From the NCBI GenBank assembly GCA_963921275.4, contig OZ001293.3:2528001-2592000 (forward strand): 64,000 bases of DNA, in the 5' to 3' direction. Every line of letters starts with the position of its first letter. Position 1 is the stretch's first letter. The position numbers and the translations under genes were made by a program. Shown here in pieces: positions 1-51,634 of the stretch. This stretch comes from an uncultured Hormoscilla sp. (GTDB lineage Bacteria; Cyanobacteriota; Cyanobacteriia; Cyanobacteriales; Desertifilaceae). A model generated the notes under the pieces. The model was not told the origin of the DNA and did no database searches. It saw only the letters and a program-made list of their open reading frames with translations.

Positions 1-647
1 TTTCGCTCTAAATACCTGATCGCTGCCAGTGGCATCATCGATCATCTCCCCCAGCTACCAAATATGCAGAATGTCTATGACTATGCTGGATACAATCTGC
101 ATGTCTGCATGATCTGTGATGGTTACGAGATGTCTGATAAGAATTGCGGGTTGTTCGTTGGTTCCGAAAGCGCGATAAATACAGCTTTTGTCTTGAATTG
201 GTTTAGCCCCTACATCACCGTGTTTACTCAGGAGCTGTTTGCAGTCGGTATGGAAATAAACTGGCAGAACATGGCTATCCCCTAGTTGAGCAGCCCATCA
301 AACGCTTTTTGGGGCATAATCATGAAATGACCGGGGTAGAACTGGCCGATGGCTCGACAGTTGAACTGGAAACGGGACTGGTGGCGATGGGTTCTCACTA
401 CCACAATGAATATCTCCAGGGTTTGGATCTAGAGTGGCAGGGCCATAACTTGGTTACCTATGATATGTGTCGTACTTCCCATCCTCGCTTATTTGCCTTG
501 GGATACTTAAAAGTAGGTCTCAATCAGGTGTCAATTGCTGTAGCAGATGGTACATTAGCAGCAACGGCAATTTGGCGAGATATCCGTCGTGCATCACAGG
601 CACGTCGCTGGGAAGAGAAGATCGAAGACTATGGGGCAGTAAGTTAA
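1..647 (+). pseudogene. NAD(P)/FAD-dependent oxidoreductase (thioredoxin-reductase-like), 5' partial, frameshifted
   Basis: CMICDG (CxxCDG) motif in the first frame; C-terminal TSHPRLFALG...QVSIAVADG in a second frame; frameshift near 255-290. Confidence 0.75.
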
Positions 648-662
648 CGGAGCTATAAAAAA

Positions 663-1217
663 GTGACTACTACTACCGACGATACTACTGTTAATCCCGA
701 ACAGCTACAAGCAGAAATGACTCACTTGCGCGAAGAGTTACAGATGCGCGACCAGCTGGTGCAACAATTGTCTCAAGAGCTTTTCCGATTGGTTAAAGGC
801 AATGCTAGTTTTATGCCTAATCAATTAGAATCTGAAGGTAATATGGCCCAAATTCAGGCTCTGCAAGAGCAGCTACGAGGCTTTTCCGAACAGATAGGAT
901 TTTATCAAGAGCAAATTGCCTCTCGGGATGCGGAAATTTACCAACTGCGGCATACAGTGCAGGAATTGACTGACCGTAGTCGGATGTTGGAAATGGCAGT
1001 ACAGGAATTGCCTCATATATATCGCCAGAAGTTTGCGGAAAGGATAGAACCGGTGAAAGAAAGACTGGATATGCTGCAACGGGAAAACCGTCAACTGCAT
1101 GCAGAATTGCAAAGTGTGAGTTACCGTCTGGCTGTCAAAACCCGCAGCGCGATCGATTTGCCTTCTTTCCCTCCGTTAGATTCTGACGATGCGGGTGGCC
1201 AGACTGGTAAAGCATGA
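663..1217 (+). CDS. conserved cyanobacterial coiled-coil protein (Npun_F5560-like)
   Basis: 184-aa ORF with RDQLVQQLSQELFRLVKGN and LQRENRQLHAELQSVSYRLA. Confidence 0.7.
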   Translation: MTTTTDDTTVNPEQLQAEMTHLREELQMRDQLVQQLSQELFRLVKGNASFMPNQLESEGNMAQIQALQEQLRGFSEQIGFYQEQIASRDAEIYQLRHTVQELTDRSRMLEMAVQELPHIYRQKFAERIEPVKERLDMLQRENRQLHAELQSVSYRLAVKTRSAIDLPSFPPLDSDDAGGQTGKA

Positions 1218-1579
1218 GTAAATATTCAGATATTAGCAATCGGCATATAGCAGTAAGCTGATCGTATCAGGCTGAATGCTTACTGGACGCGATCGGTCCA
1301 ATCGATCGGAAGTCAAATGTAGCTAATAATAGGATATGATGGTCTTAGAGGATGTTTGGAAACACGTAGAGGTAAGAAATGTTTCAGGCTAGTCTGCGTA
1401 GCATGAGTCGAATCATAGCTATGTAGATAAAGGATTCTGGTGACGCCGGTAAGCGCTCATAATCCATGTTGAGACGACGGCACCAATGCAACCATCCGTA
1501 GGTGCGCTCAACTGGACACCACCGAGGCAGCAGGGTAAATCCTTTGACTCCCACCGGTCGTTGGACCACTTCCAGATAA

Positions 1580-1677
1580 GGAACAAGGATTAAACAAGAT
1601 GCTCATCCGAGAAGCCATAAAGTATTGTCAGCGCGGGCGTTTCAGACGAGTTTGACACGTTATTAAATCCTCATTCC
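1580..1677. mobile_element. 98-bp MITE inside the IS5 transposase
   Basis: imperfect TIRs GGAACAAGGATT/AATCCTCATTCC; TAA duplicated on both sides; removing it restores the frame DTFSPYLEVV. Confidence 0.75.
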
Positions 1678-1864
1678 TAAGGGCTGAAGGTATCCATGAC
1701 CCAGCGAAGAAAATCCGCCCCCGAAAAACCTTGATCGACCCAGATGCGAACCAGTCTCCGGAAACGTTGACCCTCCTCTTGTAGACAATTGAGGACAACT
1801 TGTCGCTCCCTCACCCATGGCTGCGCCACGCTGCGCGCTCGGGTACACTAGCGGCAACGACCTT

Positions 1865-2345
1865 CCCGCTGCTGAGACTTGCGTTGCTCGTCCACAAAAC
1901 TGCGGTTTCGACCTATCCGCAGACTCAGACAGCGTTTTTATTCGTTCCGAGCCCAAGATTGATTGGCAGTTTAGGGCGGTTCAATTTACCCGATCGCAAC
2001 TCGGAGAAAACGGCTATCACACGTAAAAATGCCATGAGTCTTGCGCGATCGAGGTTGGCATGTTTGATTCAGATTGCCACCTATGGATAGGACACTTTTC
2101 TAGAACCTGTTTGCCCATACTGCCTCCCCATTACCGCCAGTGTGCCTATCTGCTTTGGCTCTGATTGCGGCCTGTTACCAGCTTCACTCTTTGGAGTTCC
2201 GAGTCCAATCGGTGTGGTCAGGTCGGGAGTCACTGTGTCTCCTACAGGACGGGACTTGCACCCGCATCCAAGGGTCAGTTAGGAAGTTTCTCGGGTGTTC
2301 CCGGACGTTTTCCTCCCAGGCTATGGATTTGGGAACGAATCGCAC
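1865..2345 (-). mobile_element. group II intron 5' fragment (domain I to about II/III) inserted in the IS5 terminal repeat
   Basis: starts GTGCGATTCGTTC at 2345; domain I closing GGAACGAA near 1945; EBS1/EBS2 complementary to the flanking TIR; no domain V seen; inner end approximate. Confidence 0.75.
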
Positions 2346-2626
2346 TCGTGTTTCCAAACATCCTCTTAGGCTCAAAGGGCTATATCTCTTACTGGGTGAG
2401 GGTTTCAGGCGATCCTTTTATATAGACGCTTCGTATGTGCCGCCCTACTAGTTCCTAAGGTAAAGAAGCATTTGTGAACGGCGGGCGGCTATCCTCCCCG
2501 AGAATGGAGAGCTTACCCACCGCATGAGGCTGTAAATTGGGGCTAGTTTTTGTCAAAATTATCAATAATCATCAATAATCATCAATAGAGAGAGTACTAG
2601 AAATCTAGATAGAGAGGATTGGCACT

Positions 2627-3823
2627 ATGCGGTGGAAAAAGGATTCCCGCGCCTTGCGCCTTCTGGGTACCCATGTTTTGGCCTTCGCTCTAGGAGCATT
2701 GCTCGCCCTGAGTGCGGTTTTACCTTCCCAAGCAGATCCCTTACCTGATCGGGCTAAAGTAAAAATACCCCCATCTGCGGTAGAACTGCAAATCCCTCAA
2801 GCTGGCACAAACTTTGTGACAGCAGCGGTGCAGCAGGTAGGGCCTGCGGTGGTCAGAATTGACACGGAGCGCATTGTCACCCGTAACTTCGATCCGTTTT
2901 TTGACGACCCCTTCTTCAATCGCTTTTTTGGTGACAGGTTCCGGCAGCAATTGCCACGGGAAGAACGTCAGCGGGGACAGGGTTCGGGTTTCATTGTTGA
3001 ACGCAAGGGGGTCATTTTGACCAATGCCCATGTAGTGAGTGGAGCCGATCAAGTGACGGTGACGCTCAAGGATGGACGCGAGTTTGAAGGAACGGTGCTA
3101 GGTAAAGATAAGGTGACAGACCTGGCAGTTGTCAAGATTAATGGTGATAATTTGCCTGTGGCTAAGTTGGGAGACTCTGCTGGCGTGCAGGTGGGAGACT
3201 GGGCGATCGCGGTTGGCAACCCCTTAGGATTGGACAATACTGTTACTTTGGGCATTGTCAGTACCCTCAACCGTTCTTCTTCAGAGGTTGGCATTCCTGA
3301 CAAGCGCGTGGACTTCATTCAAACTGATGCGGCGATCAATCCTGGTAATTCCGGCGGTCCGCTGTTGAACTCACGGGGTGAAGTGATTGGCATTAACACG
3401 GCTATTCGTGCTAACGCGAATGGTATTGGCTTTGCTATCCCAATCGATAAAGCTAAAGCGATTAAAGACAAGTTGGCCCGTGGAGAAGAGATTCCTCACC
3501 CCTATATTGGAGTGCGCATTGCCAACCTGACACCGGAACTGGCAAGGGAAAACAATAGCGACCCCAATTCATCGATAGTACTGCCAGAAACTACTGGCGT
3601 ATTGGTGGTGGAAGTGATGCGTGATACGCCTGCAGCTAGGGCTGGTTTGCGTCGGGGAGATGTGATTGTCGAAATTGATGGGAAACCTGTTACTACCGCC
3701 GAGCAGTTGCAGAAGATGGTCGATCGCAGTGGTGTTGGGAAGGTACTGCAAGTTAAGCTAATACGCAACAACCAAGCCCAGCAACTTTCGATCGAGACAG
3801 TTCAACTGCGAGATATTCTGTGA
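2627..3823 (+). CDS. HhoA/HtrA-family serine protease with PDZ domain
   Basis: LTNAHVV, DLAVVKI, IQTDAAINPGNSGGPL; C-terminal PDZ; signal-like N-terminus. Confidence 0.93.
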   Translation: MRWKKDSRALRLLGTHVLAFALGALLALSAVLPSQADPLPDRAKVKIPPSAVELQIPQAGTNFVTAAVQQVGPAVVRIDTERIVTRNFDPFFDDPFFNRFFGDRFRQQLPREERQRGQGSGFIVERKGVILTNAHVVSGADQVTVTLKDGREFEGTVLGKDKVTDLAVVKINGDNLPVAKLGDSAGVQVGDWAIAVGNPLGLDNTVTLGIVSTLNRSSSEVGIPDKRVDFIQTDAAINPGNSGGPLLNSRGEVIGINTAIRANANGIGFAIPIDKAKAIKDKLARGEEIPHPYIGVRIANLTPELARENNSDPNSSIVLPETTGVLVVEVMRDTPAARAGLRRGDVIVEIDGKPVTTAEQLQKMVDRSGVGKVLQVKLIRNNQAQQLSIETVQLRDIL

Positions 3824-3825
3824 AG

Positions 3826-3858
3826 ATTGCGAATCGCGAATTGCGAATTGCGAATTGC
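3826..3858 (+). repeat. heptamer tandem repeat (ATTGCGA)n
   Basis: direct reading; STRR-like. Confidence 0.7.
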
Positions 3859-3959
3859 AATGGGTAGTGGTCAAGATGTAGTGATTTGGGTGTTGCACAA
3901 GGACGGGATGATAAGTAATTGCCGATTATAATAATCGGCAATTACTTATCATAAGTTTA

Positions 3960-5119
3960 TGTTGCACATTTTTGGGATGATACTAGCCAAACGTCAGTTT
4001 GGGATAAGGAGGAAAGGGAGAACTCTGGTAAGCTGAAGATTGTAAAACCTCGTTCAGCCAAGTTCTCCCATGTCTAGTTTAGAAGAACTTTTCTGCCACA
4101 TAGATGACTTCTGCCAAGAATTTGAACCCCAATGGCAAAAACAGATGCTCAGCCACGGCTTAAAAACCCGAAAACGAGCCATCCGACTGCGCCTGAGCGA
4201 AATCATGACGATTCTGGTCGCCTTCCATCAGCATCACTACCGCACTTTCAAACACTTCTACCTCGAACAGGTCTGTCGGTACTGGCATCGTGCCTTTCCG
4301 GGATTGGTCAGCTACACGCGCTTTATTGAATGGATACCTTCTGCATTGATTCCTCTGAGCGTTTATCTCAAACACTGTTTTGGTCAATGCACGAGCATCA
4401 GTTTTATGGATTCGACAAAGCTATAAGTCTGCCATAATCGCCGAATCAAGCAACATCAAGTAAAGACCTTGCCCCTCGAGGAAAAACCTCAGTGGATTGG
4501 TTTTTTGGCTTTAAGTTACATTTAGTTGTCAATGAGTTTGGGGAATTAGTGAATATACAAATCACCCCCGACAATAGGGATGACCGAAAACCAGTTCCTG
4601 ATTTGTTGAAAGACTTATTTGGCAAAGTTTTTGCGGATCGAGGCTAGGTTTCTCAGGCTTGAGCACAAGAACTCTTTGAGACTTATGGCATCGAGTTTTT
4701 CGTCAAACCTCGTCGCAATATGAAGAACAAATTAATGCGGCTTACCGACAAGTTACTGGCCCGTAAACGAGCCATCATCGAGACGATTATCGACCAACTT
4801 AAAAATATTTCTCAGATTGAACACTCTCGTCATCGTAGCCCCGTGAATTTCTGCATCAAAGTTCTGTGCGGCTTAATTTCTTACTGCCACCAGCCGCAGA
4901 AGCCTTCGCTTCAGTTAGACTGGGTTTTACCTGCTTCGGCTTAACCCGAACTGACGTTAGCCAATGGTTGAAAATTAGCGCAGCGTGTTCCCAGGCGGGA
5001 GCCTCTTAACGAGGAAAATTGAAAATTGTTCGTTCAGACATCGAGCTATGACTACTTCTGACTATTTGAATTCACTGCCAACAATTAGCAACCCCTATCA
5101 TCCCGTAGTTGTGCAACGC
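3960..5119. mobile_element. IS1-derived MITE interrupted by IS982
   Basis: ends GTTGCACATTTTTGGGATGATA and CATCCCGTAGTTGTGCAACGC match the IS1 at 44548 and the MITE at 34076. Confidence 0.65.
3991..4957 (+). mobile_element. IS982-family element with transposase pseudogene (4070-4944)
   Basis: TIRs ACGTCAGTT(T/C)GG; 7-bp duplication TAGCCAA; LEELFCHIDDF...[21 protein letters not shown] with internal stops. Confidence 0.9.
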
Positions 5120-5213
5120 TAATTTATAATTAGTAGAAGCTGATTTTACCCAGAAGTATCAATTAGTAGTATAATGGATATTAAGGCTAATATATAATTT
5201 CAAGGAGTTGAAC

Positions 5214-5345
5214 ATGAAATGTTTACAATGTGATTCTGAACTTATCAATAAAAATGGCCATCGGCTTGGTAAGCAAAATTTTATTTTTAAAAATTGTGGC
5301 CGCCAGCTTATTGAAGATTATTCTCCACGAGGGGATCTGAAAGAA
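5214..5345 (+). pseudogene. IS1 insA N-terminal fragment
   Basis: MKCLQCDSELINKNGHRLGKQNF, homologous to the IS1 start near 44706. Confidence 0.6.
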
Positions 5346-5720
5346 GTGAAATGCTGGTAATGATTTCAATTTTTGGAGAGGTCTAATTGTCAACAAGCCT
5401 CTTGGCCCTAGTCTATTAATCAAACTTGATAAATTCATCTTTGTTGTCTATCGACTGAAAATTTATAGATTCTCGTCTCCCCCTGGGGAGATATACCCCC
5501 GAGCACTTTACGAAAAATTACCGATTACTAAAGTGACTCTATAATGGTGTTGCTCCGCTGGGTAAATGCTGCTAAGCAAGGCGCGGAGTTAGATTAATTA
5601 CTAGGGAGCCCGAGCGCGAATAACATTCCGAATGGCTTGACAACCAGGATATATTGGTGTGAGAGAAAAAAGTAAAAGTTACAGCATGAAAAGTTGAATA
5701 AATGCGTCGCTATTCCTTAA

Positions 5721-6378
5721 CGGGACTTAAACAAAAACTTCCCATTAAAGCGACTGAATTGCATGTATAATAGGGATTATACGTCAACGAGCACAGTCTC
5801 ATGATAGTATGGTGATGTACGGAGTTTGCCGAATCTAGTAATTATCAGTAATCTTATTTATAATTTATAGATTTGGGCTACGTATCTGCACTGATTTAAG
5901 GCAAAAATGAAATGAAAGAAATAACTATTCAGGCCATGCCACCTTGTTTCGATAGATGGTGCCGTCGTTTTGACGATCTATTTACTCGCCAAGCCCAAGG
6001 AAGAGAGTTCCGTAATTATTTAAGTGGGTTATTAGGAGAAAGTGAGCGAAAAAATATCGCCCAAATGTCAAAAAATACTGTGGGTGTTTCTTATCATAAA
6101 ATGCATCACTTTATAACCGAATCTCCTTGGGATGCTGATTGTGTGAATGAAAGGCGATTAGAGATAATGACGCTCTGCCGTCAAACAAAACCTAGGCAAA
6201 ATTTTAGCTTAATAGTGGACGATACAGGTCATCGCAAAAGCGGAACAATAACTGAAGAGGTAGGCGGTGTCACTTGACAGGCATGAGAATATAGTATCTC
6301 ATGCCTGTCAAGTGACACCGGGAAGACAATATATTGGGGAAGTTGGCAAAACTGATAATGGTCTTGTAATGGTAACAA
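5721..6378 (+). mobile_element. IS701-family element, 5' fragment
   Basis: left end CGGGACTTA; MPPCFDRWCRRFDDLF...LIVDDTGHRKSG...RQYIGEVGKTDNG; truncated by IS1634. Confidence 0.8.
6265..6320. repeat. 56-bp perfect hairpin insert in the IS701 transposase
   Basis: 24-bp arms CGGTGTCACTTGACAGGCATGAGA, 8-nt loop; GG on both sides; splits EVG|RQY. Confidence 0.8.
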
Positions 6379-9250: not shown

Positions 9251-11670
9251 GTGCGATTCGTTTAGAGTAAAATGACTTGACACGTGTCAAAAAAGGGGAC
9301 CGCTAGCAGGGTTTCAATAGCCCTGACAACTTACAGATGATGGTGGTGAAAGCCCACCCCTCCAGGTGCTCTCGTGACAGCATCCTCCCGACGGTAGCGA
9401 TGGCATCAATCCGTAAAGCGGGAAGGAAAGGCGCTCTAACTGGTAGCCTAAACCGGTCATCGTCGAGCAAGTAGTCATGATGAGCGCAAGCAAAGGTTCA
9501 TAAGTGTCGTCAACATCAACCAGTGTAATAAGGCTGAGACACTGGCCCAAAAGGGAAAGGATAATGGTCATTAGCGGTTGTAATCCGACTAATAAGCACT
9601 GACAACAAACCCGGCATATAGAATCCATCTAAAACTACGATTAATCATCTGTAGGAACGAAGTAACCCAGCTAGGCACTCTCCATCACCGGTCGATAGAT
9701 GGAGTAGTCACCAAAGACGCAACATCTGCTCTCATTTGGCAGGTCATAGCTGGGAAAGATTGAGTGGAGAAGCAAACGCCTATCTGTAATGGATGGGATA
9801 AGCTGACGCCCTCACGGTTTTGTCAATTGTGAAGTTGTGAGTAGTAGTTAATATGTCACGGAACTTAGCCGAAAAGCAAGAGTATGAATGGAAGGAGGTG
9901 CCCTGGCAGGAGCTGGAGCGCCGATCGCGCTAGCGTGGCGCCAGCCATGTCTTCAAGCTACAAAAGCGAATTTACAGAGCGGCACAGGAAGGCAACAAGC
10001 GGAAAGTTCGCAAGCTCCAAGGGTTACTAAATAGGTCATGGTCCACGAAGATGATAGCGGTGAGACAGGTAACACAACAAAACCAAGGAAAGAATGCGGC
10101 TGGTGTGGATGGTGTGAAAGCACTGACTATGGAGCAGCGACTGGAACTGGTAAGTCAGCTCAGAGTATCCAGGAAGGCAAAGGCGAAACCTACACTGCGT
10201 GTATGGATACCTAAGCCAGGAAGGGACGAAAAGCGGCCACTAGGAAGACCGACGATGCACGACCGCGCACTTCAGGGATTGGTCAAACAGTCGCTTGAGC
10301 CCGAATGGGAAGCGTACATGGAAGCCAATTCCTACGGATTCAGACCAGGAAGGGGATGCCACGATGCGATCGAAACGATATTCACCAGCACCAACAAGAA
10401 ACCAAAATGGGTGTTAGATGCGGATATTGCGAAATGTTTCGACAAAATTGACCACTCAGCGCTCCTAGAGAAATTGAATACAACATCACCAATCCGTAGA
10501 CAGATACGGGCATGGCTAAAAGCCGGGGTGATGGACCAGGGAATATGGCAGGACACAGAAGCCGGAACTCCTCAAGGCGGAGTAATATCACCATTGCTAG
10601 CCAATATAGCCCTACATGGGTTGGAAAAGGTAGTGATGAGTCTTGCCCGCACAAAGAGAGAGGAAAAGAAACTAACGATAGTCAGGTACGCCGATGATTT
10701 TGTGGTAATGCACGATGACCGGTCAATGATTGAGCGAGCACAAGGAGTGATTGAGGAGTGGTTGAAGGGAATAGGACTAGAGCTAAAAGCCGAGAAAACC
10801 AGGATATCCCACACACTGGAAGGAGAAAACCCCGGATTTGACTTCCTAGGGTTCAATATCCGACAATACAAAGTAGGGAAACACAGAAGCGGCAAACTCA
10901 GCAACGGAACCCCCCTAGGATTCAAGACCCTAATCAAGCCTAGCGATAAATCCATTAGGAATCATAAAGAGCAACTATCACAGATAGTTCGCCGCCATAA
11001 ATCGGCACCACAGACAGCCTTGATAGTCAAACTAAACCCAATGATAAGGGGATGGAGCAACTACTTCAAGACGGTGGTAAGTAAGGAAACTTACAGCGAC
11101 ATGGATAGCTACCTATGGGAGCTGCTGTGGCAATGGGCAAAGAGAAGGCATCCCAATAAATCGGGCGAATGGATTGCCAAAAATTATTGGGCCATGACCG
11201 GTAAGGACCGGTGGAGGTTCATCGGTAAATCCAAGAAAGGAGAAATAAAGCTAATCCGGCACTCTGAAACTGAAATAATCAGACACACAAAGGTAAAGGA
11301 AACAGCTAGCCCGCTTGACGGTAACCTAGTCTACTGGAGCCAGAGATTACGAAAGAGCCCGGACGTAAGCATGAGAGTGATTAACCTGCTCAAGAGGCAG
11401 GATGGCAAGTGCCAGCATTGCGGACTAACGTTTAAGGACGGCGACAAATGGGAAGTGGACCACATCCTGCCAACCTCACTGGGAGGTAAGGACTGGTACT
11501 CCAACCTACAGTTGCTGCACGACTACTGCCATGATTATAAATCTGCCAGGGATGGCAGCAAAGGCCGTATCCATGACAAGGATGACGAAACTGAGGAGCC
11601 GGATGAGGTGAAAGTCTCACGTCCGGTTTTGAAGACGAGTCGGTACGGTGACGTACTGGCTTAGTTTAAT
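9251..11670 (+). mobile_element. group II intron (IIB, chloroplast-like class), full length, antisense within a transposase
   Basis: 5' GTGCGATTCGTTT; domain V GAGCCGGATGAGGTGAAAGTCTCACGTCCGGTT; domain VI ending AAT; RT ORF in domain IV. Confidence 0.93.
9853..11664 (+). pseudogene. ltrA: group II intron RT/maturase/HNH protein; in-frame TAG at 9931 from a small insert, downstream ORF 10051-11664 open
   Basis: SYGFRPGR, DADIAKCFD, GTPQGGVISPLLANI, YADD, HNH CQHC..EVDH..H..CH; N-terminal W..VPW..LER|VFKLQKRIY in the same frame. Confidence 0.9.
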
Positions 11671-14719: not shown

Positions 14720-15722
14720 GTCGGGGTCGAGCCTATTGTCGCCTCCCGACCCTCCCTTTCGGAACCGTGCATGCGACTGGAGCCGCACACGGCTACTGGG
14801 TAGATAGCCCTTGTCATGGGTAGAATTACTCAGGATTACTCCCTTTGTTCCTTTCCTCATGCAATGGAACCCCTTATGGTTAGTCTCAGACTAGATAAAT
14901 GCCTAACTCCGGAAGGTTCGCGGGGGATAACAGTACCAACCCATATAAACCGCTCTTTACTAACATTTACCTAATTTACTAGGTTCTCCAAGTTTTACCC
15001 GGTTAGGTCTTTAGTCCAAAATTAACTACCTAGGATTTCTCCTGGTCTAGAACATTTAAGGCTACTTTCACCCAAAGATTCTATCTATCACCGACCCACG
15101 TCAGCATATCCATAGGAATTACCCGGCGTCTTCCGCATGCTCTTGTCCTGAAGGACACGGCTGGCGCCGCGCTGCCGCGAACGGCTGGCGCTCCCGCAAG
15201 GGATACGGCATGCTCCAGACACCGCCCAGGCATTAGCTTCTTGGGCCATCTCTCCCCTCGTGGCTTGCGCTTTACATCTAACTTGTCCATATGAGGACAG
15301 CTCACGAGAGGTTACTTCGTTCCCTGATATCATTTCACGATACCTTTAGGCCCCTACTTTCCTCCGGTAGTTATCCGAGTACGATGTTAGCCAAAGTACA
15401 AAACTAACACTAACTACATTGACTTTTGTCTCCGGCGCATAAAGCCTTATTTCGCCGGTTCCCATTTACGAAGTTTACATAGGTTCGCTTATTCTAACCT
15501 TGGGCATCTAACAAGCGCGGAGTCACCGGTTTAGGCTACCAGCTATCCTACATTTGAGTCCTCGCTTAGCACCACGGCGATGTGGCTCCGCAGCACCTCC
15601 GACCGGTGTCACCCCCGTACTTGAAGGGAGGGAATTTAACAATAATGATAATCAGAGTTATCTGGCTAATGGAACCAGACCCGACTTTCACCATTACTGG
15701 CTTATGTCAGAACGAATCGCAC
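14720..15722 (-). mobile_element. ORF-less group II intron (IIB), 1003 nt
   Basis: 5' GTGCGATTCGTTCTG; domain V AGCCGTGTGCGGCTCCAGTCGCATGCACGGTT; domain VI ending CCCCGAC; no RT ORF; collinear with 17867-18733. Confidence 0.88.
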
Positions 15723-17866: not shown

Positions 17867-18733
<867 letters not shown>

Positions 18734-51345: not shown

Positions 51346-51634
51346 ATGACCAGTATCACTATCAGTAACGTTGATGACAACCTCTTATCCCGCTTACAAA
51401 AGCGAGCAGAAGATCGCGGACTTTCCCTGGAAGAAGAGGTCAAAGAAATACTCCGGGCCGCCGTATTAACAGAAAACAACTCTAAACCATTAAATCTTGC
51501 CGTTCGCGCAGCGTGGCGCAGCCATAGCCATTGAGCGACGTTTTGCCCATTTTGGGGATTTTGAAATACCCACGATCGTCAGAGAACTCATGCGCGAACA
51601 TCCTAATTTTGAGGATTTACATGATTATACTTGA
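51346..51634 (+). pseudogene. FitA-like ribbon-helix-helix antitoxin, frameshifted by a 22-nt insert
   Basis: ITISNVDD..LQKRA..SLEEEVKEIL; continues AIERRFA..REHPNF in a shifted frame. Confidence 0.8.

Follow-up and report, generated by a model that had tools for sequence, protein, structure and literature searches.

The sequence between TTA 1345-1347 and TTA 2366-2368 of the window (the whole stretch of DNA analysed, 64,000 nt, from Hormoscilla sp.) is very probably what decay has left of two nested mobile elements, a group II intron inside an insertion sequence (IS) of the IS5 family. The anatomy of the locus, the pairing between intron and IS end, the truncation of both elements and the ancestry shared with a second Hormoscilla locus are documented below; the order of events is our reconstruction. 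Nothing in the element as it now stands can splice, move or transpose on its own.

An IS5-family element with two intact ends

The 19-mer GAGGATGTTTGGAAACACG has two exact matches in the window, at 1348-1366 (plus strand) and 2347-2365 (minus strand), whereas shuffled sequence is expected to give 0.03 matches even when up to three mismatches are allowed. TTA lies outside each match, at 1345-1347 and 2366-2368, and we read these as the left and right copies of a 3-bp target duplication. The match at 1348-1366 is IRR, the IS end on the C-terminal side of the transposase. Its exact inverted partner is IRL, the end on the N-terminal side, which together with one further A (2346-2365, minus strand) forms the 5' exon of the intron. 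Related ISs on cyanobacterial plasmids are ~913 bp long, encode a 263-aa transposase and have 17-bp terminal inverted repeats (TIRs), with ends reading GAGGATGTTTGAAAAGT and with TAA/TTA flanks. Their left and right ends agree at 17/17 positions in one copy (L003) and at 16/17 in another (L012). Because the two ends match in these relatives, the 19/19 pair in the window is best seen as the two natural ends of one IS.

What remains of the transposase gene lies on the minus strand. Residues ~201-263 and the stop codon occupy 1384-1575; within this segment, 1575-1387 matches Pfam DDE_Tnp_1_2 (PF13586, E=2.5e-8) and is 65% identical by tblastn to a transposase of Nostoc flagelliforme that PGAP names IS5 family transposase. 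Residues ~146-195 (KVVAASVPER...VLNCLQEEGQRFRRLVRIWVDQGFSGADFLRWVMD) occupy 1692-1864. Of these, residues 161-195 were placed by tblastn at 1796-1692, in a frame that differs from that of the 1575-1387 segment, and residues ~146-154 (KVVAASVPE) begin at 1864, as read by eye against a reference transposase. The tblastn alignment breaks off at 1692 and picks up again at 1575. The gap, 1576-1691, goes with a change of frame and represents an insert of some 100 nt (~116 nt in place of five residues of the reference), and a search of the window for a second copy of it found none. The remnant also contains a short dispersed repeat at 1809-1837, of which 21 nt (1817-1837) occur again, exactly, at 51505-51525. 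Judged by eye, excision of 1804-1835 would restore the transposase reading frame.

The IS5-family features seen at this locus are a DDE transposase, present as a remnant only, TIRs and a short target duplication. A complete (autonomous) transposase gene is absent: residues 1-~145 are missing, and the remainder is broken by the frame change, the ~100-nt insert and the short repeat. A protein search returned 210 transposase homologues, mostly of 263 aa, several of them named IS5 family transposase. The best match in the protein database, at 83% identity, was among the 263-aa IS5 family transposases, and no close intact relative was found there. Many of the 210 are on contigs of ~0.9-1 kb, and the IS family is abundant in cyanobacteria. 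Within the 64-kb window, no other copy of the IS or of an IS end was found.

A truncated group II intron beside the right repeat

On the minus strand, the sequence across the junction is ...GAGGATGTTTGGAAACACGA/GTGCGATTCGTT..., and 2345 is the first base of the intron. A single A stands between the right repeat and the intron start, GTGCG (2345-2341). A preliminary description of this DNA had the intron adjoining an IS5 TIR; this proved correct, with the start one base past the repeat. GTGCG conforms to the GUGYG 5' boundary and aligns with the GTGCG of eight relatives.

From this start the intron fragment extends over 481 nt (1865-2345, minus strand) and comprises domain I and probably domains II-III. 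Over ~480 nt it shows 70-80% DNA identity to sequences on Anabaena and Nostoc plasmids, two of which belong to complete group II introns that have an RT ORF and match domain V in Rfam. Homology of domain I to complete introns, together with pairing of EBS1 to the 5' exon (see below), identifies the fragment as group II. A search with the Rfam D1-D4 models (E<=10, 1200-2600) returned only RF02003, over 30 nt at 11.9 bits and E=8.8, which is not significant. This match is too weak to use, so the identification was based on homology to the plasmid introns instead. The predicted fold of the fragment is modestly better than that of shuffled sequences (z = -2.2).

The fragment ends at nt 481. The catalytic domains V and VI are absent from it, and the window copy has no reverse transcriptase/maturase. 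The domain V model (RF00029) found no match at 1200-2600 of the window or in L005, the second Hormoscilla locus; it did match other introns in the window and the two complete plasmid relatives. At 1865/1864, the window jumps from intron nt 481 straight to transposase residue ~146, and the intervening sequence, from intron nt 482 to transposase codon ~145, has been lost. The deletion of the 3' part of the intron and of the 5' part of the transposase, already noticed in the preliminary description, can thus be refined to a single breakpoint. We considered and rejected the 21-nt repeat as the sequence at the intron/IS junction, since alignment with L005 places the junction at 1865/1864, and the repeat lies 27 nt further on, within the transposase remnant. 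The fragment is a non-working 5' remnant of a group II intron. A second copy of the intron, or of its 5' end, was not found within the 64-kb window. The best IEP match in the protein database was 65% identical, and no intact close IEP relative was found there.

Pairing between the intron and the IS end

EBS1 (ACGUGU, intron nt 322-327; 2019-2024, minus strand) lies in a terminal loop of the predicted fold, and its register was confirmed in relatives. For this we aligned domain I from ten plasmid relatives, the window and L005, and counted Watson-Crick or G.U pairs; L001, with a degraded 5' end, and L019, in which homology is lost after ~nt 250, were left out of the EBS1 count. In seven of the eight usable relatives, the EBS1 columns pair 6/6 with the last six bases of that intron's own exon. 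The eighth, L014, shows 6/6 pairing one base off, as judged by eye. As a control, we scored 72 mismatched intron/exon combinations, none of which reached 6/6 and six of which reached 5/6. Own-exon pairing in the relatives and its absence at 6/6 in the control make the EBS1 assignment sound.

In both the window and L005, EBS1 (ACGTGT, 2024-2019) pairs 5/6 with the occupied exon, ACACGA, the exception being an A.A clash at -1. With ACACGT at 1362-1367, in the opposite and empty end, it pairs 6/6, as the preliminary description had stated. The candidate EBS2 (UCAAACAU, intron nt 279-286; 2060-2067, minus strand) falls 43 nt upstream of EBS1, in a hairpin loop predicted to be 14 nt long. Read as DNA (TCAAACAT, 2067-2060), it pairs 8/8 with ATGTTTGG of the TIR, at -16 to -9, through seven Watson-Crick pairs and one G.U pair, which bears out the 8-nt pairing proposed earlier. 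The aligned loop of the relatives showed no consistent complementarity at the EBS2 position. With IRL as 5' exon, IBS2 falls at -16 to -9 and IBS1 at -6 to -1, for a total of 13/14 pairs (8/8 + 5/6) at the occupied end. The partner end reaches 14/14 (8/8 + 6/6): there, IRR and the T at 1367 make up a perfect IBS2-AA-IBS1 site, which is unoccupied.

We compared these scores with those of 20,000 random 22-mers from the window. The EBS2 score was reached by 0.41% and an IBS1 score of >=5/6 by 2.8%; both together were reached by 0.015% (3/20,000). Pairing so far beyond chance indicates that the insertion was RNA-guided and no accident of rearrangement, and it supports reverse splicing, guided by the TIR sequence through EBS1 and EBS2, as the probable mode of insertion. 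Because the partner end matches at 14/14 positions, we infer that the IS terminus is likely at or near the cognate site of the intron, at about an even chance or better.

The same insertion in a second Hormoscilla genome

For comparison, we scanned 185,579 representative genomes for the 19-mer GAGGATGTTTGGAAACACG. Five records matched, where by our own arithmetic ~4 are expected by chance. Only one of the five is cyanobacterial, namely L005, a contig of 4.9 kb from the MAG of a Hormoscilla sp. The other four (L004, L006-L008) are from non-cyanobacterial phyla and were rejected as chance matches; within 3.5 kb of them we found no convincing inverted partner, and the best candidate, 3.1 kb away in L004, has five mismatches. 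Another scan of the representative genomes, with two intron motifs fixed on EBS1, gave no matches, although it was strict enough to miss L005, which has AATAGC where GATAGC was required. Between them, the two scans produced a single further TIR/intron junction, that of L005, and no independent occupied end.

Window 1-1435, which spans the two upstream genes and the left flank of the IS, has a counterpart in L005 at 97% identity. Its junction is identical to that of the window (TAA/GAGGATGTTTGGAAACACGA/GTGCG), and the two introns share ~98% identity up to window 1865 (nt 481), where the sequences diverge. The L005 intron is ~570 nt longer and runs on through the remaining 5' part of the ribozyme into the RT ORF, which yields a 149-aa N-terminal piece of the IEP (61% identity to the Anabaena sp. 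90 IEP) ending ...GFRPGRSTHD. At this point a second, related IS5-family left end, GAGGCTGTTTTAACAGTG (L005 2455-2472, minus strand), interrupts the intron ORF at a TCA within its RT motif. After ...STHD the sequence runs TCA/GAGGCTGTTTTAACAGTG...GAGTAAAAAAGCTC...ATG, and from its first base it aligns with the left ends and 5' UTRs of the related plasmid ISs. We also considered this sequence as the 3' end of the intron followed by the 3' exon, and rejected that assignment because of its alignment as a second IS left end. L005 is thus nested once more, the intron next to the first IS end being itself host to a second IS. This second IS, whose left end is unoccupied, is the source of the transposase N-terminus found in L005. 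It follows that the original 3' exon of the intron is in neither genome, and that the placement of the intron between nt 20 and 21 of a single IS depends on the argument from TIR pairing.

On the other side of the intron-bearing end, the last 74 nt of L005 (3519-3592) are a 92% match to window 5716-5789. L005 is without window 2369-5716, a 3.35-kb segment that includes an HtrA-like protease ORF (2627-3823), and its junction falls exactly at the IS end and TTA 5717-5719, which is uninterrupted in the window. Deletion of adjacent DNA mediated by the IS end, IS-IS recombination and misassembly of the MAG are possible causes of this loss. Synteny on both sides indicates that L005 and the window carry the same ancestral insertion and not a second event; on the simplest reading, one insertion of IS plus intron would lie behind both. 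Since L005 keeps more, both elements must have been more complete in the ancestor, with different parts lost along the two lineages.

A proposed history and its alternatives

In the history that we propose, an IS5-family insertion sequence with 19-bp ends (GAGGATGTTTGGAAACACG) would have landed at a TTA site. A cyanobacterial group II intron, of a kind whose relatives encode RT-maturase-HNH proteins, would then have reverse-spliced between nt 20 and 21 of the IS, just inside the end upstream of the transposase gene and on the strand of that gene. Base pairing would have picked the site, EBS2 with IS nt 5-12 and EBS1 with nt 15-20 (5/6). A later deletion of roughly 2-3 kb would have fused intron nt 481 to transposase codon ~146, and the short repeat and the ~100-nt insert would have broken the rest of the transposase afterwards. 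Several observations count against the nested relic: the A.A mismatch at -1, when seven of eight relatives pair 6/6 in the same register; an EBS2 uncorroborated by those relatives; the Rfam D1-D4 score (E=8.8); the fold (z of -2.2); and the second IS as owner of the transposase N-terminus in L005, which leaves neither genome with the 3' exon.

How the intron came to this end can be read in other ways. The preliminary description had the intron targeting a multicopy IS end. The part of that claim which stands is guided insertion at the TIR by EBS1 and EBS2; the part not supported is habitual homing into a multicopy IS or MITE end, as the window holds no second copy of IS or intron and L005 is the same insertion. 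The IS terminus may nevertheless be a regular homing site, with many IS or MITE copies occupied and the intron transposing as cargo of the IS, a reading that we consider unlikely. The 13/14 pairs at the occupied end and 14/14 at its partner amount to complementarity of retrohoming grade, and the abundance of the IS family in cyanobacteria (210 related transposases) also speaks for this reading. Moreover, the outer edge of the intron-bearing end in L005 is joined to TTA 5717-5719, which is 3.35 kb off in the window. This join fits transposase action on the end after the intron had arrived, or a second intron-bearing copy. Yet only a single insertion event is documented, the window and L005 being one locus; the 64 kb contain no other IS or intron copy; the exact TIR is found in one cyanobacterial record only among the 185,579 representative genomes; and the perfectly matching end of the very same element is empty. 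In addition, an intact close relative of the IEP was not found in the protein database.

A one-off ectopic retrotransposition, with the true homing site elsewhere and the IS end merely similar enough, seems to us improbable. Cognate sites of this intron lineage do not usually show a mismatch at -1, and relatives of the intron are at unrelated sites; the one in L002, for instance, lies downstream of a dnaB-like fragment. By our own arithmetic, a frequency of 0.015% among 22-mers also translates into hundreds to thousands of sites per multi-megabase genome. Against this stands the partner TIR, whose 14/14 match with correct spacing is very unlikely to arise in an unrelated sequence and has no easy explanation unless the intron's cognate target is the IS end itself. 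Finally, juxtaposition of an IS end, or a deletion, beside the intron 5' end through rearrangement, with no reverse splicing, was already disfavoured and is very improbable: the locus is indeed heavily rearranged (deletions, the second IS in L005, short repeats), but the boundary is exactly at GTGCG, the 20 nt next to it are complementary to EBS1 and EBS2 alike (p about 1.5e-4) and the junction is conserved in L005.

Other mobile elements in the window

Short repeats of 21-27 nt, ending ...GCGCCAGCCAT or ...GCGCAGCCAT, are scattered through mobile elements of the window and L005. In the window they are at 1809-1837 (minus strand), 9925-9948 (plus), 15157-15208 (minus; two in tandem) and 51505-51525 (plus), and in L005 at about 3030-3078 and 3329-3354. 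Three units are inserted in the L005 intron and are absent from the window copy. The repeats are reminiscent of the very small mobile ones reportedly present in Nostoc.

Besides the 481-nt fragment, the window contains at least two more group II introns. One looks full (9252-11670, plus strand), with an RT-maturase-HNH ORF at 10051-11664 and domain V at 11594-11670; the short repeat at 9925-9948 forms an in-frame stop in the N-terminus of its IEP. A second domain V is at 17867-17944 (minus strand), and a sub-threshold match to domain V at 14720-14797 (minus strand). Beyond the first 12 nt, these other introns have no 5' region in common with the fragment. At 4070-4944 (plus strand), a string of short ORFs looks by eye like another broken transposase.

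Comparison with known systems and significance

Other introns are known in IS ends. The closest DNA relatives of the intron studied here are introns on Anabaena sp. 90 pANA02 and on Nostoc sp. UHCC 0302 plasmids (L001 and L002), with 70-78% identity over domain I. They share its EBS1 register; unlike the window intron, they have domain V and RT ORFs. Their EBS1 sequences differ from that of the window, and their flanks are not IS ends. Our literature search found no paper on group II introns in Hormoscilla.

The natural target of RmInt1 of Sinorhizobium meliloti is described as lying inside the multicopy ISRm2011-2, in the sense orientation relative to the transposase (PMC4238363; PMC1802570), and its presence in the transposase gene has been argued to limit the spread of that IS (PMC4238363). 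As portrayed in those accounts, RmInt1 resembles the case presented here in being a bacterial group II intron in an IS, in the transposase sense orientation. The two differ in that RmInt1 interrupts the coding region of the transposase in an IS630-family element, whereas the window intron is 20 nt inside an IS5-family terminus, upstream of the gene. Furthermore, the RmInt1 IEP is described as having no endonuclease domain, whereas the IEPs of the window intron's relatives carry HNH; and for RmInt1 many occupied copies and experimental homing are reported, whereas one dead copy is known here.

In Thermosynechococcus elongatus, three introns are reported at a conserved site in ISEL1, of the IS200 family, and the ORF of TeI4g is interrupted by an IS (TeI4g::ISEL2f); insertion into other mobile elements is listed there as a mechanism of intron proliferation (PMC2882425). 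By that description, the F4 introns in ISEL1 are paralleled by the intron in an IS end of the window and L005, and TeI4g::ISEL2f by the IS end inside the IEP ORF of L005. The host differs, ISEL1 belonging to the IS200 family with three occupied copies and the present host to the IS5 family, with a single ancestral event. Introns that home into ISs are therefore a known kind, of which the window holds a dead example, with its site just inside an IS5-family TIR.

As such, the locus is a tidy instance of nested mobile-element decay in a filamentous cyanobacterium, with an intron in an IS, an IS in the intron and short repeats in both, and comparison of two related genomes reconstructs part of its history. 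The finding would gain in importance if many occupied ends turned up in complete genomes. The preliminary description had also suggested that the intact TIR could carry the intron along; what stands of this is that the terminal 19-20 bp are intact. If the target lies within the TIR but spares the outermost bases, which the transposase needs, the intron could multiply on the IS without destroying it, and in this detail a TIR-internal target would differ from that of RmInt1, which interrupts the transposase gene. It is conceivable, if doubtful, that the intron lineage is specialised on the TIR of this IS5-family element and has spread both by retrohoming and by transposition of the IS. Were that so, each IS or MITE copy would present two landing sites of opposite orientation, just inside the ends to which the transposase binds. 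With its outer 19-20 bp surviving, an occupied IS could be mobilised in trans, and the intron-bearing end at TTA in L005 would be a trace of the route by IS transposition.
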